DNA from: Myxococcota bacterium
Lineage (GTDB): Bacteria; Myxococcota_A; Polyangia; Polyangiales; Sandaracinaceae
Assembly (NCBI GenBank): GCA_036149055.1
Contig: JAYZQJ010000263.1
Coordinates: 1-17,154 of the forward strand
Length of the DNA stretch: 17,154 nt
Direction of reading: 5' to 3'
Below are positions 1 to 16,994 of this stretch, piece by piece. A program made the translations under genes and the position numbers. Below the pieces are notes generated by a model. It was given only the letters and a program-made list of their open reading frames with translations, searched no databases and had not been told where the DNA came from. Each line of letters opens with the position of its first letter. Position 1 is the stretch's first letter.

Positions 1-36
1 CACCCGGAGCGGAGACAGGTCTGACGGCGCAGCGGG

Positions 37-69
37 GGGGAGGGGGTTGAAAAGCCCCTCCCCACAAAC
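37..69 (-). repeat. REP-like hairpin element immediately downstream of the cytochrome stop (may continue left of position 37)
   Basis: GGGGAGGGG (37-45) pairs with CCCCTCCCC (55-63). The minus strand reads TGA-GTTTGTGGGGAGGGGCTTTTCAACCCCCTCCCC, similar to the elements at about 9631-9720 and 16995-17154. Confidence 0.55.
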
Positions 70-1284
70 TCAGCCCCCCCAGCGGGTGCGGAGGGCGTCG
101 AGGTCTCCGTGGCAGGTGCGACAGGCCCGGGCGTTGCTCTGCAGGGCCGGGAGACACGAGGCGACGAAGCCCGGCGGGTGCGGGCTGACGCCGGCGCCGA
201 TGCCGAGCGCGCCGTGGCACTGCACGCAGTCGCGCTCGGCGTGGCAGCTGGCGCAGGCGTTCATCGCGCGGCGGGCCTCGAGGCCGTGCAGCACCGGGCC
301 TCGCACCCAGACCGCGTTGGGCGGGTGGTAGCGCTCGGCGGCGCGGACGTCCGGGGCCGAGAGCGGCGAGAGCCCGAGCCGGGCGTGACACTCGGTGCAG
401 AACCGCGAGGTCTCGTGGCAGCTCGTGCAGCGCGGCTGATCCCGCCTCGCCTGCGCGACGTGGGTGGTGAGGTAGTCGCCGGGGTGCACGCGGCGGGGGC
501 GGACGCGGCCGTCGTGGCAGTCGGCGCAGTCGGACTCCTGGTGGCACTCCCCGCACATCCCGCCCTGGTCGGCGCCGACCCAGCGATGCCGGACCAGCCA
601 CTCGTGGTCGTGGCGCATGCCGAAGAGCCACTCGGGCGGGTTCAGCTCGCCCTCGGGCCAGCGGGTCCGCAGCATGCCGTCGGGGCGGGTCAGGTGGCAG
701 GTCTCGCACTCGGCGGGGGCCGTCGCCTCCGCCGCGAAGCCGGGGGGCCCGTGGCACTCGAAGCACTGCCGCATCGTGGGCAGGTGCTCCCGGGTCGCGA
801 GGCCCGCGCGGCCGACGCCCTGGTGACAGGTGAGGCATCGCATGCCGTCCTCCACGTGCTGGCGGTGGGAGAAGCGGAGGCGCGCGGTCGGGAAGTCCGA
901 GGCCGGGACGAGCTGATCGCCGCGCTCGCCGAAGCCCTGGTGGCAGGTCGCGCAGCGGGTCTCGCGGTCGGGGGCGTCGCGGTCGAGGTCGGCGGCGTGA
1001 CAGGGCTGGCAGCTGTCCTCCGGCGGGATGAGCAGATCCTCCGCCCGCTCGCTCACGCCGGCGCCGCGGTGACAGCGCACGCAGCGCAGCTCGCGGTGCG
1101 CCGGGAGCGCGTGGTCCATGCGGAGCGCGATCCGTTGCGGCGGGTAGACCACCGGCGAAGGCAGGCGGGGCACGTCGGTCGCGGCGGCCGGCGGCCGGCT
1201 CTGTCCTCGAGCGCCGCGGTGCGCGCCGAGCACCGCCGCGGAGGCGAGCGCCAGGAGAGCCAGACAGGTCGTCGCGCGCCTCAT
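70..1284 (-). CDS. Secreted multiheme c-type cytochrome with 13 CxxCH motifs (404 aa)
   Basis: Likely start is ATG at 1284, overlapping the upstream stop (ATGA). Signal peptide MRRATTCLALLALASAAVLGAHRGARG. Motifs: CVRCH, CQPCH, CATCH, CLTCH, CFECH, CETCH, CGECH, CADCH, CTSCH, CTECH, CASCH, CVQCH, CRTCH. c3/c7-type His pairs MDHALPAH and FSHRQH. Confidence 0.95.
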   Translation of the reverse strand: MRRATTCLALLALASAAVLGAHRGARGQSRPPAAATDVPRLPSPVVYPPQRIALRMDHALPAHRELRCVRCHRGAGVSERAEDLLIPPEDSCQPCHAADLDRDAPDRETRCATCHQGFGERGDQLVPASDFPTARLRFSHRQHVEDGMRCLTCHQGVGRAGLATREHLPTMRQCFECHGPPGFAAEATAPAECETCHLTRPDGMLRTRWPEGELNPPEWLFGMRHDHEWLVRHRWVGADQGGMCGECHQESDCADCHDGRVRPRRVHPGDYLTTHVAQARRDQPRCTSCHETSRFCTECHARLGLSPLSAPDVRAAERYHPPNAVWVRGPVLHGLEARRAMNACASCHAERDCVQCHGALGIGAGVSPHPPGFVASCLPALQSNARACRTCHGDLDALRTRWGG

Positions 1285-2678
1285 CGCCACGTGTCCACCC
1301 TCAGCGCGAGGACCGCGCGGAAGCGGTTGCCGATCACCCGGCTCGCCGCGTGCTGCAGCTCGGCCAGGACCAGGGTCTCCGGGCTCAAGCGGAAGCGGCC
1401 GCTCAGCACCTCGGACACCACGGTGCCGTAGAGCTGCTCCCGGTTGGGGTCGTCGAAGTGCCAGACCGACACGTCGAGCCCGAGCTCGAGCCACCCGAGC
1501 AGCGGACGGCGCACGTCGAAGGACACGCCGGCGAGCGGGCCGAGCGCGCCGCTCCACGCGAACCCGGTGGCGCCGAAGCGGAAGCCCTCCCAGCGCGCGC
1601 GGAACCATCCGTCGATCCCGGCGTCGAGATCCTCGCCGAACGGCGGCCCGAGCTCCGCCCGTCGACCCCTGAGCGCCCCACCCACGGTGAGATCGTCGCT
1701 GAGCTTCCAGCGCGCCCCGAGGTCCGCCTGGTCGATGGGGGCCACCACGAACCACGCCCAGATGGTCCCGGGATCGAAGCGCGGCACGTGCCGCGAGACC
1801 CCGGCGCGGACGAGGAAGGTGTCGTCACCCACCGCCGCGCGCCCGGACGCCGCGATGACCTCGCTGGTCAGCAGGTCCCAGACCCCGTTGGCGTCGAGCC
1901 GCAGCCAGTCGACCGGTTGGCTCGAGGCGGCGCCCGAGACCCGCGAGAGCACCTCGCCGTCGGTCTCCCACATCTGTCGGAACCCCACCCGCAGCTGCAG
2001 CGCTCGGCCGGGCCCGCCGGCCACCGACGCCCCGGCGACCCAGGTGTCGATCGGCGGATCGGCCCAGGGCACGTCCTGCGCGTCGAGCCGGATCGCCCCC
2101 GGCAGCTCCGAGCGCGGGGTGCCGGCGAGGCTCGTGCCCCGGACGAGCAGCCCGCCGAGCGCCTCGAGCCGGACCCACGACGCGGGCACCACCCGGACGC
2201 TCAGCCCGTCGAAGCGCGCGAAGCCGATGTCGTCGAGCGCCAGCTGACGACCGAGCCGCGCCGACGTGCCGAGGGGCAGCCCCGACGTCTCCACCCACAC
2301 CGCGGGCACGTCGAGCCGGGTGTCGGCCGCGAGCGGCTGCCAGGCGCCCGGATCGTCGGCGTCCACCGCGTTCACGCAGAGCTCCGCGTCCAGCAGGCAC
2401 GTCTCGCCGAAGTCCTGCTCGAGCCGCAGCTGAGCCTCCGCCGTCACCCGGAGCACCCGGCCCTCGTCGTCCGGCTCCTCGAGGTCGTGGCTGAGCCGCA
2501 GCGCGAGCCGGGAGAGCAGCCGTCGCCGCGCCCAGAACGCCCGCGCGCCGGGAGAGCGCACCTCGTAGACCTGGAAGCTGGTGTCGGTGTCCAGCTCGAC
2601 GTCGAGCGCCCGCGCGACCGGCGCGCCGATCCCGACGCTCGCCAGCGCGCAGCTCAGCGCGATCCAGGGGCGCGCCAC
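1281..2678 (-). CDS. Probable outer-membrane beta-barrel protein (465 aa), candidate porin partner of the cytochrome
   Basis: GTG start and signal peptide ending ARA|LD. Many alternating amphipathic strand-like segments (LRVTAEAQLRL, LRLDANGVWD, LELGLDVSVWHF). C-terminal strand with late aromatic (VLALRVDTWR). LGRQ..DG motif typical of such barrels. Translationally coupled to the cytochrome. Confidence 0.75.
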   Translation of the reverse strand: MARPWIALSCALASVGIGAPVARALDVELDTDTSFQVYEVRSPGARAFWARRRLLSRLALRLSHDLEEPDDEGRVLRVTAEAQLRLEQDFGETCLLDAELCVNAVDADDPGAWQPLAADTRLDVPAVWVETSGLPLGTSARLGRQLALDDIGFARFDGLSVRVVPASWVRLEALGGLLVRGTSLAGTPRSELPGAIRLDAQDVPWADPPIDTWVAGASVAGGPGRALQLRVGFRQMWETDGEVLSRVSGAASSQPVDWLRLDANGVWDLLTSEVIAASGRAAVGDDTFLVRAGVSRHVPRFDPGTIWAWFVVAPIDQADLGARWKLSDDLTVGGALRGRRAELGPPFGEDLDAGIDGWFRARWEGFRFGATGFAWSGALGPLAGVSFDVRRPLLGWLELGLDVSVWHFDDPNREQLYGTVVSEVLSGRFRLSPETLVLAELQHAASRVIGNRFRAVLALRVDTWR

Positions 2679-2689
2679 GTCCGGTCAGC

Positions 2690-3145
2690 TCACGCGTCGC
2701 TCGAGCGGCGCGCTCCGTAGCGTTGCGCGAGGGCGTCGTCCCAGGCGTCGGCCACCCGGCCCACGTTGCGGATGAGGCCGTCCACCTCCGAGGCGTCGAG
2801 GTCGCGCACCGAGCGCTCGGAGACCACCACCACCTCGCCGCCGCTGATCGCGAACGCGGCCCCGACCAGCTTGGCGGCGTTGGCCTCGAGCAGCTCCCGC
2901 GACAGGGCCGGCACCTGGTCGGCGGCCGGGAGGTGGATCACCGGCGCCACCACCCGGATGCGCCCCTCGGTGAGATCGCCGCTCGGGGCGTGCACCGCGA
3001 TCAGGATGCGCGCGCTCCCGCGCCGCAGCGCGTACGCCACGTGGCCCTCCCGCTGCGTCCGGCTCGACGCCGGATCGATCCCGAGCCCCCGGATCGTCCG
3101 CTCCACCAGGCCGACCGCGTTCTCCACGTCCGCATCTGCGCTCAT
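2690..3145 (-). CDS. YbjN/CesT-like (type III chaperone fold) protein (151 aa)
   Basis: ATG at 3145 with GGAG shortly upstream. Sequence YALRRGSARILI...IRVVAPVIHLP...LSRELLEANA..LVGAAFAI...RSVRDLDASEVDGLIRNVGRVADAWDDAL matches the YbjN/CesT pattern. Stop lies 11 bp before the barrel gene start. Confidence 0.8.
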   Translation of the reverse strand: MSADADVENAVGLVERTIRGLGIDPASSRTQREGHVAYALRRGSARILIAVHAPSGDLTEGRIRVVAPVIHLPAADQVPALSRELLEANAAKLVGAAFAISGGEVVVVSERSVRDLDASEVDGLIRNVGRVADAWDDALAQRYGARRSSDA

Positions 3146-3234
3146 GCGGTGATCTCCGTCGAGCGGCGCCGCGGTGTCAAGCCGAAGGTGCCGCGGCTGG
3201 ACGGCGGCCCGGGAGAGGCCCAAGCTCGCGGCCC

Positions 3235-3897
3235 GTGCTCGACGCCGCCTTCGACGCCCTCACGCAGCAGCTCACCGACGCGGACGGCGGCGCCGATCTC
3301 GACCGGGCGCGTGAGGCCTTCTGCGCGCGGACCGGCGACTTCGGCCTCGAGGACGCCTTCTACGAGGCGCGCACCCGGGCGCTCTTCGACTTCTGGCTCT
3401 GCGACTGGGTCGGCGCCGACGGCACCCGCCCCCCGACGCGCAACCGCGACCCCGCGCTCGCCGAGGTGGCGGCCGCCTGTCTCCACGCCGAGCGCGGCCT
3501 CTTCCGGGTGGTCGACGCCGAGCCGCTCCAGGTCGAGGAGCTGGTCTTCGGCGCCCGGGTGCGGCTTCCGTCCGGGCTCTCGGAGCGCTTCCGCCCCGGC
3601 GACGTCTTCGACGGACGGCTGCTCATCGTATCGGGATCGATTCAGGTCACACCGGGCGCGCTCTTCCATCCCCCCGAGGCGCACGAGGCCCTCGACGCCC
3701 TCCTGCCCGACGTCCGAGGGCTGGGGCTCGGGCGGAGCGAGATCCTCGACGGCCTGCTCCGGATGCGCATGCGGCTGCACCGGTTCACGAGCATCCGGCC
3801 GCGCCACCTGTACCGCCTCGACGCGCTCCTGGAGCCCGACATCAACAGCGCGGGCTGGGCGAAGAAAGCGCAGTCATTCTCGACGAATGAGCGCTGA
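3235..3897 (+). CDS. Hypothetical protein (220 aa)
   Basis: GTG start, GC3-biased codons and globular composition. Divergent from the YbjN-like gene and convergent on rnpB. No family recognised with confidence. Confidence 0.75.
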   Translation: MLDAAFDALTQQLTDADGGADLDRAREAFCARTGDFGLEDAFYEARTRALFDFWLCDWVGADGTRPPTRNRDPALAEVAAACLHAERGLFRVVDAEPLQVEELVFGARVRLPSGLSERFRPGDVFDGRLLIVSGSIQVTPGALFHPPEAHEALDALLPDVRGLGLGRSEILDGLLRMRMRLHRFTSIRPRHLYRLDALLEPDINSAGWAKKAQSFSTNER

Positions 3898-3977: not shown

Positions 3978-4379
<402 letters not shown>

Positions 4380-4455: not shown

Positions 4456-5685
4456 GTGCGTCCCCTCCGCCTCGCGATCGTCTGTGTGCTCCTCGGCCTC
4501 GGCTGCGGTGGGGAGGCCGCGCCACCGGCGGCGACGGTCGACGCGGGCGCGCCCGCCGAGGTGACCACCGCGCCGCCGGCCCCGTCCGCGCGACCGGCGC
4601 GACCGGAGCCGCCCACCCCCGCGGCGCGCCCGGCGGTGGTGGCCCGCGCCGGTGACGTGGTCTCGGTGGCGGCGGGCACGTTGAAGGTGGGGAGCCGCCC
4701 GGGGGTGCCGCACCGCCGCCCGAGCGTCGAGGCGGATCTGACCCCGCTCGCGCTGCCGGCGTTCGACATCGACCGTCTCCCCTACCCGAACGATCCCGAC
4801 CAGGAGCCCCGGCTCGCCGCCACCCGCGCGGAGGCGGCGCAGCTCTGCGAGGCGCGCGGCCGCCGGCTCTGCGACGAGCTCGAGTGGGAGCGCGCGTGCC
4901 GCGGCGACGGCGACGACGAGTTCGCGACCGGGGACGCCCTCGACCTCGAGGCGTGCGTCGCCGACCCGACCGCCTGCCCCTCCGAGCTGGGCGTGCTCGA
5001 CCTCGGCGTCCGCGCGCCCGAGTGGACGGCGAGCGACGCCGACGAGCGCCTCGCCCGGCTCGAGCGCACCGCGGTGGTGCGCGGCGGGCGCCCGGACTCC
5101 AGCCTGGCGTCGCACCGCTGCGGCGCGCGCCACGTGAAGAACCCGGCCGGCGGAGGCCGCGCCCTCGCCTTCCGCTGCTGCGGCGGCGAGGCGCCCTCGG
5201 TGAGCTACCCCGACGTGGGCGTGCGCCGGCTCTGGCGCGACCTCGAGGACGTCGGCGCCGAGCGCTGGCGCGAGATCCTGGCCTCGGTGCCCGAGCTGGC
5301 GCCCTACGCGCAGGACTTCGTCCCGTACGGCGAGACGGCGGCGCTGCGGGCGCTGGCGCGCGGCGGGGCGAGCGAAGAGGACATGCAGTGGGAGCTGACC
5401 CGGCACCCCTTCGCGTGGTCGCCGTCGACCGGCGAGGAGGTCTGGATCGTGTCGGGCCGAGGCGGCGACGTCTCGCTGCTCGCCGCGCTCTACACCCACC
5501 CGGACGGCAGCTTCTCCCACGCGGCCAGCTTCTTCGTGCGTGAAGAAGAGCCGCCCCCCTTCGCGGTGCTCCGCACCCGGGCGTCCCGCGGAGAGCTGCT
5601 CTGGTCGACCTGCTGGGGCTGCGCCGGCGAGAGCGGCGTCGTCCGCTTCGCCGAAGACGCCACCATCGTCATCGCCCAGCAGTGA
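4456..5685 (+). CDS. Lipoprotein with formylglycine-generating-enzyme (FGE/SUMF1)-like domain (409 aa)
   Basis: Lipobox LGLG-C and Pro/Ala linker. Motifs AFDIDRLPYPN, EAAQLCEARGRRLCDELEWERAC, GVLDLG...EWT, VVRGG and AFRCC, followed by an additional C-terminal domain. Confidence 0.88.
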   Translation: MRPLRLAIVCVLLGLGCGGEAAPPAATVDAGAPAEVTTAPPAPSARPARPEPPTPAARPAVVARAGDVVSVAAGTLKVGSRPGVPHRRPSVEADLTPLALPAFDIDRLPYPNDPDQEPRLAATRAEAAQLCEARGRRLCDELEWERACRGDGDDEFATGDALDLEACVADPTACPSELGVLDLGVRAPEWTASDADERLARLERTAVVRGGRPDSSLASHRCGARHVKNPAGGGRALAFRCCGGEAPSVSYPDVGVRRLWRDLEDVGAERWREILASVPELAPYAQDFVPYGETAALRALARGGASEEDMQWELTRHPFAWSPSTGEEVWIVSGRGGDVSLLAALYTHPDGSFSHAASFFVREEEPPPFAVLRTRASRGELLWSTCWGCAGESGVVRFAEDATIVIAQQ

Positions 5686-5706
5686 GCCCCAGGCTCACTT
5701 CGTTCT
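5681..5706 (+). terminator. Possible weak intrinsic terminator
   Basis: AGTGAGCC-CCA-GGCTCACT hairpin spanning the stop codon, followed by TCGTTCT. Confidence 0.35.
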
Positions 5707-5923
5707 GCGGGTCTCGTCCGGCTGCGAATTGGCTCTCGCAAAGGCGCAAGGCCGCCAAGGGGCTGGGGGGCGACGGGGAGGCGGCTGGCCGCCGGGTTCA
5801 CGATCGCCGGCTTCGTGCTGTGGGTCTCGTCGGGCTGCGAATTGGCTCTCGCAAAGACGCAAGGACGCAAAGGGGCCGGGGGGCCTCGGGGTGGGGGCTG
5901 GGCGCCGGAGTCACGATCGCCAG
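5698..5923. repeat. Two tandem imperfect 113-bp direct repeats
   Basis: Copies at 5698-5810 and 5811-5923 share CTTCGT.CTG.GGGTCTCGTC.GGCTGCGAATTGGCTCTCGCAAAG.CGCAAGG.CGC.AAGGGGC...TCACGATCGCC. Confidence 0.9.
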
Positions 5924-5928
5924 CAATC

Positions 5929-6156
5929 TCGGACTCTGACTCGGACTCTGACTCGGGCTCGGAGTCGGTCGCGGAGGCGGACTGTGGCTCGGGTTCGGAC
6001 CGTGGCTCGAGGTGGGACTCGGCGCCGGTCTCGGAGCGGGTCTCGGAGTCGGACTCGGACTCGGCGTCGGTTTCGGTCTCGGTCTCGGACTCGGACTCGG
6101 ACTCGGTCTCGGATTCGGATTCGGTTTCGCGCTCGGGCTCGGGCTCGCTGTCGTTC
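5929..6156. repeat. Degenerate hexamer tandem array (TCGGNN)n, about 38 units
   Basis: Units such as TCGGAC, TCGGTC, TCGGGC and TCGGAT stay in 6-bp phase over about 230 bp. Confidence 0.9.
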
Positions 6157-6237
6157 GGAGCTGGCGTCGCACTCGGAGACCGAGTCGGGCCTCGCCGGTG
6201 ACTACACGGGGCGGCGGGCCCGTGGTAGCCCGAGATC

Positions 6238-6993
6238 ATGCGGTATGGACGGGTCGAGCACGGGGGCCGGGCGCGCTGGGCGCGCTTCGATGGGGAGCGG
6301 GCGATCCTGCTGGACCGCGCCCCCTGGGACGGCGGAGAGGCGGACGGGGAGACGACGGGCGCCAGGCGGCTCGCGCCGGTCGCGCCGAGCAAGATCGTGT
6401 GCGTGGGCCGGAACTACCGGGCGCACGCCGAGGAGCTCGGCAACGAGGTGCCGGCCGAGCCCCTGCTCTTCCTCAAGCCGCCGAGCACGCTGCTCGCGTC
6501 GGGGGACGACGTCGTCTGGCCGGCGGCCTCCGAGCGGGTGGACTTCGAGGGCGAGGTCGCGGCGGTGATCGCGCGGCCGATGAGGGACGTGACCCCCGAG
6601 GCGGCGGCCGCCGGAGTGTTCGGCCTCACCTGCGCGAACGACGTGACCGCGCGCGATCTCCAGCGGGCCGACGTGCAGTTCACCCGCGGCAAGGGCTTCG
6701 ACACGTTCTGCCCGGTCGGCCCGTGGATCGAGACCGAGACCCCGGCGCTCGACGCGGTGGTGCTGCGGACCCGGGTGGACGGCGAGCTCCGCCAGCAAGG
6801 GCGCACCGCGCAGATGGTCTGGGGGATCGCGGCCTTGATCTCCTACATCTCAGGCGTCATGACCCTCGAGCCGGGCGATCTCGTGCTGACCGGGACCCCC
6901 GAGGGCGTGGGCCCGCTGTCCCCCGGTCAGCAGGTCGAGGTCGAGATCGAGGGGGTCGGGACGCTCGTGCACGGCGTCCGTACTTCGCCGTAA
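6238..6993 (+). CDS. Fumarylacetoacetate hydrolase (FAH) family protein (251 aa)
   Basis: Motifs PSKIVCVGRNYRAHAEE, PLLFLKPPS, VDFEGEVAAVI, CANDVTARDLQ, RGKGFDTFCPVGPW and TLEPGDLVLTGTPEGVG. Confidence 0.97.
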   Translation: MRYGRVEHGGRARWARFDGERAILLDRAPWDGGEADGETTGARRLAPVAPSKIVCVGRNYRAHAEELGNEVPAEPLLFLKPPSTLLASGDDVVWPAASERVDFEGEVAAVIARPMRDVTPEAAAAGVFGLTCANDVTARDLQRADVQFTRGKGFDTFCPVGPWIETETPALDAVVLRTRVDGELRQQGRTAQMVWGIAALISYISGVMTLEPGDLVLTGTPEGVGPLSPGQQVEVEIEGVGTLVHGVRTSP

Positions 6994-7150: not shown

Positions 7151-9268
7151 GTGACACCAATTCGACGACTCGCCCTCCCCACCCTCGCCGCGCTCGCCGC
7201 CGCGGGGCTCCCGGGCTGCTTCGAGAGCCACCAGCTCGGCGGCGGCACCGACCCGGGCGACGGCTCGGTCGTCGTGCTCCCCGACGGCCGGGTGGTGCGG
7301 CCGGACGCGGGGCCGCCCCCGGGGGACGCCGAGGTTCCCTTCGACGCCGACCTGCGACCCGACAGCGGGATCGACTCCGGCCTCGACCTCGACGCGGGGC
7401 CCGACGCCTCCGGGCGCGACGCCGAGCCGCCGCTGCCGCGCGCGCCGGATCCGACGACCTGCCGCATCGAGCCCGACATCTTCCCCTTCACCGACCCGGT
7501 GATGGAGGTCCGCTGGCCGGACGGCCCGATCGAGCACGACTCGTCCGTGCACGTGTGCGCCACCCCGGTGGTGATCGACGTCGACCCCTCCGACGGGCTC
7601 GACGACCCGGTCGTCGGCTTCATCAGCTACGCCACGCTGCGCGGCGAGGAGCGCGGCATCCTGCGCATCTGGAACCCGCGCACCCACACCACGATCAGCC
7701 ACCCGTCGGACCCGATGGAGCTCGGCATCTTCGAGGCTACGGGCAACATCGCGGCGGGCGACATCGACGGCGACGGCTTCGCCGAGTTCGTGGGCATGGG
7801 CGTCTACTCGGGCACCATCGCCATCAACCACGACGGCTCGGTGCTCTGGCACTCGCCCTACCCGACCGTCACCGACCGCGGTGAGCGCTGGGCCCGCACC
7901 ATCGGGACGACGGTCTCGCTCGCCGACCTCGAGGGCGACGGCACCGTCGAGGTGATCAGCGGCCGCAACGTGCTCGAGGGCATCGACGGCACCCGTCGCT
8001 GGACCGGCGACTCCTCGATCACCACCCGCGGCACCAACGAGTTCCTCGGGCCGATCAACTGCGTGGCCGACCTCGACGGGGACGGCACCCAGGAGGTCAT
8101 CGCCGGCCGCACCGCGTTCCGCGCCGACGGCACCGTGATGTGGAACCAGACCGGCATGGGCGACGGCCTCTGCGCGGTGGCCGACCTGCTGACCACGAAC
8201 CCGGGCCCCGAGGTGATGCTCAGCTCGCGCGGCTACCTCTACGTCCTCAGCGGCGCGGACGGCTCCATCCTCTGGTCACGCATCATCGAGGGGCGCAGCT
8301 CCATCTCGGGCGGCATCGGCGGCGCGCCGACGGTGGCCGACTTCGACGGCGACGGGCGGCCCGAGGTCGGGATCGCGCACGGCGGCCGCTACGGCGTGTA
8401 CGACCCGAGCTGCACCGGCACCGGCACCCCCGCCGGCTGCGCGGCCCGCGGGCTGCTCTGGGCGACGCCCACCGGCGACGAGTCGTCGAGCGGCACGGGG
8501 TCCAGCGTCTTCGACTTCAACGGGGACGGCCGGGCCGAGGTCGTCTACAACGACCAGTACTTCTTCCGCGTGTACGACGGCACGACCGGCCGCGCGATCT
8601 TCGAGCACGCCAACAGCTCGCGCACCCGCACCGAGAACCCGGTGGTCGCCGACGTGGACAACGACGGAGACGCCGAGATCGTCTTCAGCGCCAACGCCGA
8701 GGCCGGCTTCATCCGCGACTTCTGGACCGACCCGGGCGTCGAGATCTGGGGCGACGCGCGAGGCCGCTGGGTCGGCGCGCGCCGCATCTGGAACCAGCAC
8801 ACCTACCACATCACCAACGTGGAGGAGACCGGCCGGATCGCCTCGCCCGAGACGCGGAGCTGGACGGTGCTCAACGCCTACCGGCAGAACCTGCGCGAGG
8901 GCGCCGACGTCCTGGTCGTGCCCGATCTCTGGGGCGGCCGGGGCACCTACGAGTGCACCTCGCCGGGCCGCGCGCGGATCTCGATCGAGGTCGCCAACTA
9001 CGGCCTGGAGCGCGTCGGCGCCGGGGTCGTGGTCGGCTTCTACCGCGGTCGTCCGGGCCTGGGCGAGCGCGTCGGAGAGGCGCGCACCACCCGCACCCTC
9101 GAGCCCATGGGCGACAGCGAGGTGATCACCTTCGAGGTCGACCTCGCCGGAGAGGTCGTCGACTACTGGGCCGTGCTCGACGACCCGACCGACGTGATGG
9201 GCGGCTCGGTCGCCGAGTGTCGGGAGTCGAACAACGAGGTGCTCATCTGGCGCCCGAGCTGCCCTTGA
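7151..9268 (+). CDS. FG-GAP/VCBS Ca-binding beta-propeller lipoprotein with C-terminal CARDB/Ig-like domain (705 aa)
   Basis: Lipobox LPG-C and Asp/Gly/Pro linker. Ca-loops DIDGDG, DLEGDG, DLDGDG, DFDGDG, DFNGDG, DVDNDG plus two degenerate ones. Conserved RIWNQHTYHITNV. C-terminal VANYG...V.FY.G...VAECRESNNE is CARDB-like. Confidence 0.9.
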   Translation: MTPIRRLALPTLAALAAAGLPGCFESHQLGGGTDPGDGSVVVLPDGRVVRPDAGPPPGDAEVPFDADLRPDSGIDSGLDLDAGPDASGRDAEPPLPRAPDPTTCRIEPDIFPFTDPVMEVRWPDGPIEHDSSVHVCATPVVIDVDPSDGLDDPVVGFISYATLRGEERGILRIWNPRTHTTISHPSDPMELGIFEATGNIAAGDIDGDGFAEFVGMGVYSGTIAINHDGSVLWHSPYPTVTDRGERWARTIGTTVSLADLEGDGTVEVISGRNVLEGIDGTRRWTGDSSITTRGTNEFLGPINCVADLDGDGTQEVIAGRTAFRADGTVMWNQTGMGDGLCAVADLLTTNPGPEVMLSSRGYLYVLSGADGSILWSRIIEGRSSISGGIGGAPTVADFDGDGRPEVGIAHGGRYGVYDPSCTGTGTPAGCAARGLLWATPTGDESSSGTGSSVFDFNGDGRAEVVYNDQYFFRVYDGTTGRAIFEHANSSRTRTENPVVADVDNDGDAEIVFSANAEAGFIRDFWTDPGVEIWGDARGRWVGARRIWNQHTYHITNVEETGRIASPETRSWTVLNAYRQNLREGADVLVVPDLWGGRGTYECTSPGRARISIEVANYGLERVGAGVVVGFYRGRPGLGERVGEARTTRTLEPMGDSEVITFEVDLAGEVVDYWAVLDDPTDVMGGSVAECRESNNEVLIWRPSCP

Positions 9269-11332: not shown

Positions 11333-11905
11333 TCACTCGCCGAGGTAGTCCTTGAGCCGCGCGATGTCCTGGATCGCCGAGAGCTTCGCGAGCCCGGCGG
11401 TCTCGACCTGACGCACACGCTCGCGCGTGAGGTTCATGATCTCGCCGACCTCCTCGAGGGTGATGCCGCCACGGTCCGCCACGTCGAGGGCGCACGTCTC
11501 GGTCATCTCCCAGACCTCGAGGTCGGGGAAGTTCACCTTGATCGACCCACGCACCGGGTGGACGTCGATGTAGAGGTGGTACTTACAGGAGACGTACGGA
11601 CAGGGCCGCTCCATGTCCACGCAATCGGCGCGCGTACGCGGCTTCCAGTAGTCCGTCTCCGGGTAGAGCATCTTGCCCCGGTTCAGCTCGGTCTTGCTGA
11701 GCCGCCGGATCGAGATGGTCCGCGCCCGCGCGCGGCTGCGGCGCTTGCGACGCCCCCGCTTGCGGCGCGGCTGCTCCCCCTCGGTCGGCGTCGGCGCCAC
11801 CTCCGGCTCGCTCAGCGCCAGCGCGAGGGAGCCCTCGGTACGCGGCTCGCCCACCGCCACCGTCTGCTCCGTCGCCGTATCCATCGCCCCTCGTTCCTCC
11901 GCCAT
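11333..11905 (-). CDS. DNA-binding protein with Cys/His cluster and stand-alone sigma70 region 4 HTH (~190 aa)
   Basis: ATG at 11905 preceded by AGGAGG (alternative starts 11884, 11950). [28 protein letters not shown] is a region-4.2 motif. Also contains C-x6-CPYVSCKYH...TC and an Arg/Lys-rich tract; no sigma region 2. Confidence 0.88.
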
Positions 11906-11995
11906 CGTTCCTCCTACGGGCCAGCCCTCCCTGAGCTCGCCCCTGGACATCAGAAGTCTCGTTGACCGTCGCCCGGACCCACCCCGGGCGGCTCC

Positions 11996-12535
11996 CTACA
12001 CCACCGCTCGGGCCATCCGAGCGCGCAGCGACATCCGCTTCTCGATCCCCTCGAGCCGCCCCATCAGCTCCGCTCCGAGCTGACGCGCCTCCTCGAGGTG
12101 CTTCTTGGCGAACGCGTCCGCCGCGTCGCCCTCTCGCTCGCGCTGGGCGAGCACCCCCTCGACCGCCGTGAAGATCTTGTCCAGCTGTCGAGTGAGCTCT
12201 TCGAGATCTCCGCGCACGAACAGGAACTCGCGCTGGATCTCGTCCATCGTGTAGCCCTGTCCCATCAGCCGGCGGATCTCGTCGATCTGACGGACCACGC
12301 TCGCCGGGTAGAGGCCCTGGGAGCCACGCCGCTTGCCCTTGCGGGCCACGCGGACGCTCCGGGGCAGCAGGCCGAGCTGCACGTACTTCCGGAAGGTCGC
12401 CTCCGTGAGCTTGCCGCCGCGCGAGGTGAAGGCCTCGACGATCTGCTGGACCGTCATCCCCTCCGGATGCGCGCGCTCGATCGCCACGAGCTCTTGCTCG
12501 CTCCAACCGTCTCGTGTGGCTCCGGGGTGACTCAT
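11996..12535 (-). CDS. MerR-like winged-HTH transcriptional regulator (179 aa)
   Basis: MTVQQIV...LTEATFRKYVQLGLLPRSVRV...GLYPASVVRQIDEIRRLMGQGYTMDEIQ matches the MerR HTH pattern, followed by a coiled-coil region. Confidence 0.82.
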   Translation of the reverse strand: MSHPGATRDGWSEQELVAIERAHPEGMTVQQIVEAFTSRGGKLTEATFRKYVQLGLLPRSVRVARKGKRRGSQGLYPASVVRQIDEIRRLMGQGYTMDEIQREFLFVRGDLEELTRQLDKIFTAVEGVLAQREREGDAADAFAKKHLEEARQLGAELMGRLEGIEKRMSLRARMARAVV

Positions 12536-13247: not shown

Positions 13248-14267
13248 GTGCGAAGGATCGGCCTAGGCGTCGCCCTGCTCGGGCTCGCCGCGATGGTCCT
13301 GCCCGCGTTCGAGGTCGGCCTCGCGGGGTCGCCCAACGCCCTCCCCGCGGCCGGCGCCGCGCTCTTCGTGCTCGGGGCCGCGCTCTTCGGCCTCGGCCTC
13401 GCGCGAGATCCGGCCGGCATCGGGGATCCCCGCGCCTGGCGCCGCTTCCGGAAGAACCGGGGCGCGCTCGCCGGCGCGGTGCTGGTGCTCTTCGTCGGCT
13501 TCACCGCCTTCGTCGGCCCGCTGCTCGCCCCGCTCGACCCGAACGAGATCTTCGACGCCGGCCTGAACGGAGCCGGGGTCCCGGTGGGCCCGTCGGGGCA
13601 GTTCCTGCTCGGGGCCGACAACATCGGGCGCGACCAGCTCAGCCGCCTGCTCTACGGCGGCCGGGTCTCGCTCGCGGTGGCCTTCGGCGCGGTCGCCATC
13701 GCCGGCACCCTCGGGTTCTGCGCCGGCCTCTTCAGCGGCTACTTCCGCGGCGTGCTCGACGGGGCGATCATCCAGCTCATCAACTTCGTGCTCTCGCTGC
13801 CCTTCCTGCTGGTCGCCATCGCGCTCAACCGGGTCATCGAGAACCCCTCGCTCTGGACGCTCTGCGTGCTGCTCGGCGCCCTCGGCTGGACCCGGCTCGC
13901 GCGCGTGACCCGGGCCAAGACGCTGCAGGCCCGCGAGCTCGAGTACGTGCAGGCGGCGCGCGCCCTCGGCATGGGGCACATGCGCATCCTCTTCCGGCAC
14001 GTGGTGCCCAACGTGCTCGGGCCGGCCATCGTGCTCGGCACGACCCTCATCGCGGCGATGATCATCATCGAGAGCGCGATGAGCTTCCTCGGCCTCGGCG
14101 TGAAGCCGCCGACCGCGAGCTGGGGCTCGATGCTGCGGGACGGCCAGGAGTACATGGTCTACGCGCCGCGGCTCCTGCTCTGGCCGGCGCTCCTGATCGT
14201 GGCGACGGTCTTCGGCTTCAACCTGCTCGGAGAGGGGCTGCGCGATGCGCTCGACCCGAAGGAGTGA
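13248..14267 (+). CDS. Peptide/nickel ABC transporter permease, DppC/OppC-like (339 aa)
   Basis: AWRRFRKNRGALAG, LLGADNIGRDQLSRLLYGGRVSL, EAA-like EYVQAARALG, RHVVPN and FNLLGEGLRDALDPK. Confidence 0.95.
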   Translation: MRRIGLGVALLGLAAMVLPAFEVGLAGSPNALPAAGAALFVLGAALFGLGLARDPAGIGDPRAWRRFRKNRGALAGAVLVLFVGFTAFVGPLLAPLDPNEIFDAGLNGAGVPVGPSGQFLLGADNIGRDQLSRLLYGGRVSLAVAFGAVAIAGTLGFCAGLFSGYFRGVLDGAIIQLINFVLSLPFLLVAIALNRVIENPSLWTLCVLLGALGWTRLARVTRAKTLQARELEYVQAARALGMGHMRILFRHVVPNVLGPAIVLGTTLIAAMIIIESAMSFLGLGVKPPTASWGSMLRDGQEYMVYAPRLLLWPALLIVATVFGFNLLGEGLRDALDPKE

Positions 14268-16014
14268 GGCCTGGGCCGGCATGGCCGCGCTCGGCCTCTT
14301 CGCGGCGGTGGCGGCGCTCTTCGCGGTGTTCCTGCCGGACGCGCCCGACGGGCCGCGCTACCAGGGCGCCGGACACGAGACGCCCCAGCGCGGCGGCACG
14401 TTCGTCTTCCACCACGAGAGCGACCTGCGTGGCCTCGACCCACAGGTCGCCTACGACGAGATCAGCAACATGGCGGTCAAGCTCCTCTACGAGGGGCTGA
14501 TCGACTACGACCGCGACACGATGGAGCTGATCCCTCGGCTCGCCGAGGCGGTGCCGGAGCCGAGCGCGGACGGACGCACCTACCGCTTCCGCCTCCGGCG
14601 CGGCGTGCGCTTCCAGGACGATCCCTGCTTCGAGGGCGGCCGCGGCCGCGAGCTCACCGCGCACGACGTCCGCTGGTCGCTCGAGCACATGCTCCACCCC
14701 GACACCGGCTCGCCGGGCGTGACCTTCTTCGAGCTGCTCGAGGGGGTCGAGGCGTTCCGGGCTCGCGAGGCCAGCCACATCTCCGGCATCCGGGTGATCG
14801 ACCGCTACACGGTGGACCTCCGGCTCTCGCGCCCCGACCAGACGTTCCTCTACGCGATGGCGATGACCTTCGCCTACCCGGTCGCGCGCGAGGCCTACGC
14901 CCGCTACGGCGACGAGACCCGCCGCCACCCGGTGAGCACCGGCGCGTTCGTGCTCGAGAGCTGGGAGCCGGGCGTCGAGGCGACCTTCCTGCGCAACCCG
15001 AACTACTTCGAGGAGGGCCGGCCCTACCCGGACCGCATGGTCTACACGCTGAACCTGCGGCGCATCCCGGCGACGATGCGCTTCCGGAACGGCGACCTCG
15101 ACCACATCCACCGGCAGACGCCCGCCGACTACCTGACCCTGCGCGAGATGGAGGCCTGGGCGCCGTACCGGGAGGAGCGGCCCAAGATCAACATCTGGGG
15201 CGTCGAGATGAACACCCAGATGGCGCCCTTCGAGAACCGCCACCTGCGCCGCGCGGTCGCCTTCGCCATCAACCGCGAGCGGTGGCGGCGCGCCCGGGCC
15301 AACCGGCTCGTGCTCCAGGGGCAGCCCATCCCGCGGGCCCTCGAGCGCTTCTACGACCCCGACCTGCCCGGTCAGCACGAATACGACCTCGAGCGGGCGC
15401 GCGAGGAGATGCGCCTCGCCGGTCACCCCGACGGCCTCGACGAGCCGGTCGAGGTGTGGCTGGGCGAGGGCGAGACCGGACGCGCCTACGGCGAGCTGAT
15501 CCAGTCGGACCTCGCCGAGATCGGGATCACGGTCACCCTGCGCCAGGTCGCCTTCCCCATCTACCTCCAGGAGACCGGCAAGCCCGGCCAGGCGCAGATG
15601 CTGCTCGGCGGCTGGTCCATGGACTTCCCGGACCCGGCCAGCTTCCTCGACATCCTCTTCCACAGCCGCTCGATCCACCCCGAGGGCTCCCACAACCGGT
15701 CCTTCTACTCGAACCCCGAGGTCGACCGGATCCTCGACGAGGCGCGCGTGGAGTCGGATCACGAGCGGCGGGTGGCGCTCTACCGCGAGGCCTCTCGCAT
15801 CCTGGTCGACGACGCGCCGTGGGCGTTCATCTGGAGCGACATGGCGATGGAGATGTGGCAGCCCTACGTGCGCAACTACCGACCGCACAAGGTCTGGGAC
15901 AACTTCTACCGCGACGTCTGGCTCGATCTGCCGCGCCGGCGCGCGTCGCTGTCGCCCGCGGGTCGCCTCTCCCGGTTCGCGGCGGTGCTCACGCCCTTCG
16001 GAGGCCGCCGATGA
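14245..16014 (+). CDS. ABC transporter substrate-binding protein, family 5 (DppA/OppA-like; up to 589 aa)
   Basis: RGGTF, LDPQVAYD, LYEGLIDYD, PRLAE, DGRTYRFRLRRGVRFQDD, PVSTGAF, LRRAVAFAINRE and W.MDFPDP. Overlaps the upstream stop; alternative start at 14281. Confidence 0.95.
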   Translation: MRSTRRSEAWAGMAALGLFAAVAALFAVFLPDAPDGPRYQGAGHETPQRGGTFVFHHESDLRGLDPQVAYDEISNMAVKLLYEGLIDYDRDTMELIPRLAEAVPEPSADGRTYRFRLRRGVRFQDDPCFEGGRGRELTAHDVRWSLEHMLHPDTGSPGVTFFELLEGVEAFRAREASHISGIRVIDRYTVDLRLSRPDQTFLYAMAMTFAYPVAREAYARYGDETRRHPVSTGAFVLESWEPGVEATFLRNPNYFEEGRPYPDRMVYTLNLRRIPATMRFRNGDLDHIHRQTPADYLTLREMEAWAPYREERPKINIWGVEMNTQMAPFENRHLRRAVAFAINRERWRRARANRLVLQGQPIPRALERFYDPDLPGQHEYDLERAREEMRLAGHPDGLDEPVEVWLGEGETGRAYGELIQSDLAEIGITVTLRQVAFPIYLQETGKPGQAQMLLGGWSMDFPDPASFLDILFHSRSIHPEGSHNRSFYSNPEVDRILDEARVESDHERRVALYREASRILVDDAPWAFIWSDMAMEMWQPYVRNYRPHKVWDNFYRDVWLDLPRRRASLSPAGRLSRFAAVLTPFGGRR

Positions 16015-16994
16015 TCGAGCTCATCGTCAAGCGCACGCTCGTCGGCGTCGTCATCGTCTTCCTCGCGCTCTCGTCGATCTTCCTGGTCGCCAACGGCATC
16101 GGGGACCCGGCGGTGGCCACGCTCGGCGCCAACGCCAGCCAGGAGGCGCGCGAGGACTTCAGCCGCCGCTGGGGCCTCGACGAGGACCTCCACGTCCAGT
16201 ACCTGCGCTACCTCGGCGTGCTCCCCTACGGCGAGGGCATGGAGATCCCCTCCGGCTACCACGGCCTGCTGCAGGGCGAGCTCGGCATGAGCTTCCGCGA
16301 CAAGCAGAAGGTCGGCGACGTGGTCTGGCAGCGGCTGCCGCGCACCCTGCTCCTGAGCGGCATGGCCCTGACCTTCGAGATCTTCCTCGGCCTGCTCATC
16401 GGCACCCTCGCCGCGCTGCGCCGGGGCACCTTCCTCGACACCGGCTTCATGGGCATGGCCTACCTCGGCATCAGCATCCCGAGCTTCGTCTCGGGCCCGA
16501 TCCTGCTGATGGTGATGGCCTTCCGCCTCGGCTGGTTCCCGATCGGCGGCTACGGCGTCGGCTTCGCGGACCACGTCTATCACGCGCTCCTGCCCGCCTT
16601 CACGATGGCCATCCTCGGCGCGGCCACCTACGCCCGCATCATGCGCTCCGAGATGATCGAGACGATGCAGGCCGACTACATCCGGACCGCGCGCGCCAAG
16701 GGCCTCGGCCCGGTGCAGGTGGTCGTCGGCCACGGCGTGCGCAACGCGATGCTCCCCATCGTCACCCTGATGGGCCTGAGCCTCCCGTTCCTCGTCAACG
16801 GCGCGATCATCACCGAGGCCATCTTCAACTGGCCCGGCATGGGCCGCCTCGCCATCGAGTCGATCCACTCGCTCGACGTCCCGATGATCATGGGCGTCGT
16901 GCTCTTCGCCGCCGTCGCCGTCCAGGTCGGGAACCTGCTCGCCGACGTCGCGGTCGGCGCCCTCGACCCGCGCGTCCGCATGGGCGACGGCTGA
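16011..16994 (+). CDS. Peptide/nickel ABC transporter permease, DppB/OppB-like (327 aa)
   Basis: ATG at 16011 (ATGA overlap, GGAGG RBS). Motifs GDPA, GELGMSFR, RLPRTLLL, ARIMRSEMIE..QADYIRTARAKGL, ITEAIFNWPGMGRL and DPRVR. Confidence 0.95.
   Translation: MIELIVKRTLVGVVIVFLALSSIFLVANGIGDPAVATLGANASQEAREDFSRRWGLDEDLHVQYLRYLGVLPYGEGMEIPSGYHGLLQGELGMSFRDKQKVGDVVWQRLPRTLLLSGMALTFEIFLGLLIGTLAALRRGTFLDTGFMGMAYLGISIPSFVSGPILLMVMAFRLGWFPIGGYGVGFADHVYHALLPAFTMAILGAATYARIMRSEMIETMQADYIRTARAKGLGPVQVVVGHGVRNAMLPIVTLMGLSLPFLVNGAIITEAIFNWPGMGRLAIESIHSLDVPMIMGVVLFAAVAVQVGNLLADVAVGALDPRVRMGDG

Follow-up and report, generated by a model that had tools for sequence, protein, structure and literature searches.

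Does a two-gene locus in an aerobic-looking marine myxobacterium encode an electron wire across the outer membrane, and what would such a wire be used for? The question is posed by contig JAYZQJ010000263.1 (C263), the whole of which forms the 17,154-nucleotide window analysed here. The contig belongs to a 9.9-Mb genome with 73% guanine plus cytosine (GC) and 96% completeness, which holds one copy of the pair: a gene for a predicted outer-membrane beta-barrel and, overlapping its end, a gene for a 13-heme c-type cytochrome. Porin-cytochrome conduits (Pcc) are regarded as marks of metal reducers and oxidisers, and the lineages hosting this pair are regarded as aerobic predators and degraders. 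We find the pair well supported as a physical module, and notable for its breadth and its aerobic-looking hosts.

The gene pair and its predicted complex

The pair and its parts, all on the minus strand, are:

1281..2678, minus: outer-membrane beta-barrel gene, GTG start at 2678, 465 amino acids; predicted 22 strands without a plug; putative OmbB-like (Pcc) porin
2151..2297, minus: barrel residues 128-176, a gap-free block against OmbB 92-140 that carries G143, R144, D157 and G176
1749..1784, minus: barrel residues 299-310, loop motif PxFDxxxIxxxF, near-invariant in the family and also found at OmbB 244-255
1281..1284, minus: ATGA overlap of barrel stop and cytochrome start, read from the sequence
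70..1284, minus: c-type cytochrome gene, ATG start at 1284, 404 amino acids; 13 CxxCH motifs; signal peptide without a lipobox
694..1119, minus: N-terminal six-heme module of the cytochrome, residues 56-197, c7/ActA-like (Pfam Cytochrome_C7 over two stretches; ActA and c7 matches)
109..612, minus: seven-heme core at the C-terminus, residues 225-392; seven histidines outside the motifs are invariant, and the core is predicted to occupy the lumen of the barrel

A first-pass annotation had described a 465-residue reading frame overlapping a 13-CxxCH cytochrome by ATGA, and both frames are present as described. The overlap suggests translational coupling. In 69/78 related loci a candidate start codon sits precisely 4 bases within the barrel end, as chosen by a script that took the in-frame ATG or GTG nearest that position. 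Third-position GC is 0.95 in both genes, the coding pattern of a high-GC genome; the long plus-strand reading frames over the pair, at 0.77-0.78, were rejected as shadows. Signal peptides were called by eye rather than by a predictor, from a basic N-terminus, a hydrophobic stretch and Ala-X-Ala or Ala-X-Gly. In two studies, RNA-library contigs overlap portions of both genes, and one contig crosses the junction; such contigs cannot show transcription and were not counted as evidence. Positions 1-3300 of the window gave no sigma-70 promoter or terminator match.

Barrel. The AlphaFold2 model (predicted local distance difference test score, pLDDT, 94.1; predicted template modelling score 0.86; 138-row alignment) has 22 long antiparallel strands over residues 25-461 and lacks a plug domain. 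The first strand follows directly on the signal peptide at residue 25 and Pfam gives no match, neither of which fits a TonB receptor. Fold searches returned only barrels, as the first-pass annotation had expected, led by FimD (Z 18.0), PapC (17.6), a SusC (16.6) and MtrB (16.4; root-mean-square deviation 4.9, 371 residues aligned), the last lying within 2 Z of the ushers and SusC. For the modelled protein these matches establish a barrel fold, not a family, and Foldseek likewise listed generic barrels only, a list from which absence rules out no family. With both termini assumed to be periplasmic, three long loops (90-119, 179-212 and 298-314) would point outward. Neither Pfam nor NCBIfam matched the window barrel, the two gave nothing above cut-off for 39 distant homologues, and they assigned no informative family to 20 barrels of the cluster type described below. 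The PDB sequences searched with the barrel and with two barrel profiles included no relative, and so no structure of the barrel's family, an absence that rules out no family.

Cytochrome. Seventeen open frames in the genome have at least three CxxCH motifs, and the window cytochrome, with 13, has the top count. Its 116 aligned homologues carry 13 motifs in 112 cases and 12 in four. The six-heme module has four invariant extra histidines, a near-invariant Met171 that aligns with a Met of ActA, and a variable His167 (83/116). In the seven-heme core, H225, H233, H267, H275, H320, H333 and H369 are kept in 116/116 homologues. Seven invariant distal histidines for seven hemes suggest bis-His ligation, and hence a wire rather than a catalyst. 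The core is common to all relatives examined. Six of these (L131, L132, L134, L147, L148 and L161, from families f27 and f43) have the seven-heme half alone beside the same barrel, without the six-heme module, so the core is the constant partner and these loci would be a natural minimal conduit. Foldseek with the cytochrome gave no match at E 0.001 or better, which rules out no family, and the core had no clear match among the solved structures searched.

Complex. The barrel with its cytochrome received an ESMFold2 score of 0.85; the best of three controls received 0.00. The mark used was reached by 116/157 solved complexes and 2/215 mismatched pairs, counts that are rough for the alignments used here. 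Runs agreed in at least 91% of contacts, with partner pLDDT at least 78. The interface comprises cytochrome residues 180-391, with no contacts before residue 180, and draws on all 22 strands, at alternate and mostly polar positions on several of them. In the best contacts, barrel loop 301-313 meets cytochrome residues 338-353 and 387, and barrel residues 40-49 and 116 meet cytochrome 298-304. Since the lowest-error contacts fall at loop 301-313, the last hemes would sit at the outer mouth, the same polarity as described for MtrA in PMC12806980. The motif loop 299-310 is predicted to grip these last hemes, and the six-heme module to remain in the periplasm, for the most part outside the barrel. 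On these models we consider it very probable that the two proteins form a physical complex, in which a barrel fold holds the inserted C-terminal half of the cytochrome with its last hemes at the outer mouth.

Probable kinship with OmbB and spread through the Myxococcota

We compared the barrel by eye with OmbB of Geobacter sulfurreducens, using the sequence in the supplement of Liu et al. 2014 (Fig. S2, PMC4282303). Barrel residues 128-176 and OmbB 92-140 share 17/49 identical residues without a gap, in a by-eye comparison that carries no E-value. OmbB has all four of G143, R144, D157 and G176 at identical spacing, and these are the only invariant columns in the 138-row barrel alignment. OmbB 244-255 matches barrel 299-310 at 5/12 positions, including all five near-invariant residues. 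The two blocks are separated by 156 residues in the barrel and 137 in OmbB, in agreement with the barrel's longer loop 179-212. PxFDxxxIxxxF occurs in 106/138 family rows, in its strict form in 0/20 cluster-type barrels, and in 1/15,543 long open frames of the genome, that one being the barrel itself. This counted test was built only on columns conserved in the family alignment; a first version, designed with the OmbB peptide in view, was not independent and was set aside. Because the four invariant columns and the loop motif recur in OmbB, we file the barrel with the OmbB family, and by sequence it is most likely a Pcc porin.

The pair agrees with what has been described for Pcc systems. In Shi et al. 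2014 (PMC4245776), Pcc porins have 18-22 predicted strands and partner cytochromes 5-14 hemes; the window barrel has 22 strands and its adjacent downstream cytochrome 13 hemes. As in OmbB-OmaB-OmcB, the porin gene comes first and the multiheme cytochrome gene follows. Unlike that cluster, the window pair has no OmcB-like outer-membrane cytochrome as a third gene, 13 hemes rather than the 8 of OmaB, a 465-residue barrel (OmbB, 403) with longer outer loops and a Cys94/Cys101 pair conserved in its close family, and a host that seems aerobic. The flanks of 96/98 related loci likewise contain no other multiheme cytochrome, and two-gene Pcc clusters do not require an outer-membrane one according to the same source, which predicted such clusters for Anaeromyxobacter (12 hemes) and Kuenenia (14 hemes). 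Adeh_3391/3392 (group IV; 21 motifs, 12 hemes), also of a myxobacterium, and Kuste4024/4025 (22 motifs, 14 hemes) likewise pair a barrel with a multiheme cytochrome. For them, a membrane-spanning arrangement with no outer cytochrome has been proposed, and they too are known as predictions; their cytochromes have 338-344 residues, against 404 and 13 hemes in the window. For OmbB complexes in liposomes, electrons were carried across to Fe(III), as reported in PMC4282303.

Other systems are more distant. As in MtrAB, MtoAB and PioAB, the cytochrome of the window pair is predicted to lie within a plug-less barrel, N-terminus periplasmic and C-terminus outward. However, the MtrB_PioB family (PF11854) matches neither the barrel nor anything else in the genome, the cytochrome lacks a DmsE-family (TIGR03508) match, hemes number 13 against 10 and strands 22 against 26, and the gene order is reversed. 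PCC3 and PCC4 (He et al. 2017) also have a predicted porin with a multiheme cytochrome, but PMC5566968 defines them by a conserved inner-membrane protein of five helices and by additional multiheme cytochromes within the cluster; the window locus has no inner-membrane protein, extracellular cytochrome or extra periplasmic cytochromes. In sequence, and more faintly in fold, the six-heme module resembles cytochrome c7 (PpcA, GSU1996) and ActA of alternative complex III. The pair is thus unlike MtrAB, as first proposed, yet it is no new principle: to call the design unrecognised was an overstatement, given the OmbB motif set and the two-gene Pcc clusters predicted in 2014. What is new is a subfamily that stands alone and is mostly non-lipoprotein, in which a barrel-filling core of seven hemes is constant and a six-heme extension is optional, found in a marine Sandaracinaceae-like host with aerobic-type oxidases. 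In the openly accessible literature we found no paper on multiheme cytochromes or extracellular electron transfer in Sandaracinaceae or Polyangia, nor, from titles and the starts of abstracts, one on the family of this pair. A lake study names Myxococcota as richest in novel multiheme clusters, which may include the window cytochrome (10.1101/2022.03.26.485925).

Linkage. The two genes stay together across relatives. A 12-13-heme gene adjoins the barrel in 19/20 loci, window included, and the barrel lies directly upstream of the cytochrome in 78/80 (the best 80 of 121 cytochrome loci); all three misses are at contig ends. Taken from the barrel side, a cytochrome stands right behind it in 49/49 loci (29 top matches and 20 hand-picked) and in 22/22 (20 further hand-picked weak matches, 2 shared). 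Three outcomes had been named beforehand as fatal to the conduit idea, namely no barrel fold, a lumen unable to hold a heme chain and homologues unlinked to cytochrome genes. None occurred, the lumen being predicted to hold the cytochrome.

Distribution. Named homologues fall mostly in Sandaracinaceae and other Myxococcota, which bears out the myxobacterial host surmised from the DNA. Close homologues of both proteins (P0026 and P0124) occur in the cultured species Sandaracinus amylolyticus. The barrel profile matches 148/301 genomes of the phylum at E 0.001 and the seven-heme core 154/301 at E 1e-20, with kin among the genomes making these counts non-independent. Both genes were found in 140 genomes, neither in 139, the core only in 14 and the barrel only in 8, the last all weak at E 1e-5 or worse. 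An Atlas placement, which is a lead only, puts P0026 and P0375 near Myxococcota clusters and P0375 also near Thermodesulfobacteriota; a plasmid search with P0375 found nothing. Of 20 distant homologues, few received a name from cluster look-ups. An 869-residue fused homologue (P0230) and split barrels at L029, L038 and L044 were dismissed as apparent assembly frameshifts, not real fusions.

Subfamilies. The weak matches are homologous to the pair over their whole length (barrels, probability 99.6, E 1.4e-23; cytochromes, E 2.2e-59). A quick tree built from 90 core domains (the window, one in four of L021-L100 and the full set L102-L170; midpoint root, with support from the Shimodaira-Hasegawa-like approximate likelihood ratio test, SH-aLRT, only) separated 70 rows including the window from 20 others with support 99. 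On the window's side, another multiheme gene occurs in 2/98 loci, whose flanks reached up to about 8 kb and were often shortened where a contig ended; 10/127 show a crude lipobox pattern. The weak-match or cluster-type set has other multiheme genes in 19/22 loci and the lipobox pattern in 14/22. Both kinds co-occur in several genomes. Within the stand-alone clade the rows group broadly by family, a hint of vertical descent but no proof of it. Cluster-type paralogues at L150, L151, L153, L154, L155, L156, L165 and L167-L170 lie amid cytochromes with 23-34 CxxCH motifs, recalling PCC3, and cluster-type loci are candidate envelope-spanning systems in Polyangiales and other Myxococcota. When the cluster-type profile was searched against proteins, 8 were matched, with no named Geobacter member.

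Surroundings of the pair

The other features of the window are:

21-84: GC-rich hairpin repeat just beyond the stop of the cytochrome gene; 45 blastn matches genome-wide
2690..3145, minus: YbjN/CesT-like chaperone-fold gene (Pfam PF22551, PF10722), 11 bases upstream of the barrel gene
3978-4375, minus: class A RNase P RNA gene (Rfam RF00010, 284.6 bits)
4456-5685, plus: formylglycine-enzyme-like domain protein with a lipoprotein-like N-terminus, near the pair in 21/98 loci
5690-6230: low-complexity intergenic repeat with >1000 short blastn matches genome-wide and high depth in DNA and RNA runs
6238-6993, plus: fumarylacetoacetate hydrolase family gene, near the pair in 14/98 loci
7151-9268, plus: 705-residue FG-GAP repeat protein with a lipoprotein-like N-terminus and long RNA-library contigs over the gene; such a gene lies near the pair in 12/98 loci
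11333-12535, minus: gene with a sigma-70 region-4-like C-terminus; upstream of it, a 179-residue gene with no NCBIfam match and, by eye, a MerR-type DNA-binding look
13248-16994, plus: peptide ATP-binding cassette transporter genes (permease C, binding protein, permease B)

The YbjN/CesT-like gene is possibly co-transcribed with the pair; present in 34/98 related loci, it is a non-obligate component. Nearness of the genes at 4456-5685 and 6238-6993 to the pair is probably local synteny. The very high RNA-library depth at 3978-4375 is due to the RNase P RNA gene. Only 69 bases of contig remain after the cytochrome gene. The hairpin repeat there resembles repetitive extragenic palindromes and may terminate the transcript and explain the contig break. 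At L089 (9132-9521) the cytochrome gene is followed by a conserved gene of some 129 codons, which recurs in 33/98 loci; in the window its place would fall beyond the contig end.

Possible direction and role of electron transfer

By a slight balance of probability, we favour the pair as a one-to-one outer-membrane conduit of the Geobacter Pcc (OmbB) type that exports respiratory electrons to outside acceptors. The 22-strand barrel would sheathe the seven C-terminal hemes and leave the six N-terminal hemes in the periplasm. Electrons would come from the quinol pool via alternative complex III or soluble periplasmic cytochromes, the six-heme module would dock the periplasmic carriers, and the seven-heme core would conduct across the outer membrane. 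Under oxygen shortage, such as within marine particles, the electrons might then exit to Fe(III) chelates, oxides or humic-like acceptors. The pair encodes no outer-surface cytochrome, and its extra six hemes may replace the separate periplasmic partner cytochromes of larger Pcc clusters. Export is favoured because the one tested relative, OmbB, reduces Fe(III). A donor path in the host is plausible. Contig C233 carries an ActA-like pentaheme gene with an NrfD-family gene and a heme-copper oxidase gene, a set whose sequences we read as alternative complex III. The NrfA family has a partial match only. Three large 10-11-heme proteins (L171, L172 and L173, on contigs C74, C14 and C75) show partial similarity to ExtM below cut-off, and are possible periplasmic partners.

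Several points weigh against export. No experiment on any such pair was found. The host genome has four heme-copper oxidase family genes, and the window's DNA was found, whole or in part, in 20/24 runs listed (11 studies) from seawater, marine metagenomes and invertebrate gut, one of these runs possibly being its source; oxidases and seawater occurrence fit aerobic life with no call for metal respiration. No NapC/CymA match that could serve as inner-membrane donor was found in the 96% complete genome. Among the 98 loci, 96 lack another multiheme cytochrome in the flanks fetched, and none of the recurring neighbours (YbjN-like and uncharacterised genes) was recognised as respiratory. On the structural side, the OmbB homology depends on comparison by eye, the models were built without hemes, the cytochrome modelled alone is weak in its C-terminal half (pLDDT 46-65 over residues 251-370), the complex score may owe something to likeness to solved MtrAB, and in the models the three long loops might cap the last heme from outside.

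The oxidases, the missing NapC/CymA match and the stand-alone state of the pair in 96/98 loci would all suit the same conduit run inward, in the manner of MtoAB and PioAB. Fe(II), reduced organic matter, surfaces or other cells would then be the donors on the outside, and the electrons would pass to alternative complex III and the oxygen reductases. The missing outer-surface cytochrome partner, a trait of the two-component oxidative MtoAB and PioAB (PMC5566968), would suit this reading too. We nonetheless think inward flow unlikely: OmbB, the sole tested member of the barrel family, serves Fe(III) reduction, the Anaeromyxobacter two-gene Pcc belongs to Fe(III) reducers, and heme potentials cannot be read from sequence. 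A little less likely again is a role with little respiratory flux, in which the pair serves as a redox sensor for surfaces, prey or neighbours, or the 13 hemes buffer electrons as a capacitor. A housekeeping-like function of this kind would agree with the single copy in the host and one core match in most genomes, with retention of the pair in genomes of 2.7-2.9 Mb (G100, G031), with recurring neighbours of unknown or regulatory type, and with a clade apart from the cluster-embedded paralogues and broadly grouped by family. Yet a sensor, kinase or output domain is neither fused to the pair nor constantly linked to it, and the tree behind the last point is quick, midpoint-rooted and supported by SH-aLRT only.

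The barrel could instead be a transporter with the cytochrome as its plug or periplasm-facing redox partner, for example reducing entering metal chelates, and no wire across the membrane. TonB-dependent barrels have 22 strands, the size of the window barrel, and crowd the fold-search list; the three long outer loops touch the cytochrome and might cap it. But the barrel has neither a plug domain nor a TonB-receptor family match, contacts with all 22 strands leave little channel room, and the OmbB motifs match, so that we regard this as improbable. Returning to a wire, a wider proposal is that the pair is ancient, vertically inherited and stand-alone, apart from the mineral-respiration clusters. 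Aerobic predators would use it to draw electrons from particles, prey or kin, or to read their redox state, and the minimal unit, barrel plus seven-heme core, would be the smallest self-sufficient Pcc conduit. We rate this as doubtful, if somewhat less so than inward flow taken by itself.

A relative of the OmbB conduit that Pfam and NCBIfam overlook thus has matches in roughly half of the Myxococcota genomes sampled, and most of the loci studied have the pair alone, without respiratory neighbours. Sandaracinus amylolyticus, cultured and with homologues of both proteins, makes the pair testable, and since forms with 7 and with 13 hemes exist in nature, they could be compared to learn how Pcc wires are constructed. 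If the conduit works, electron exchange with the outside would be a common trait of Myxococcota in seawater, sludge and soil.

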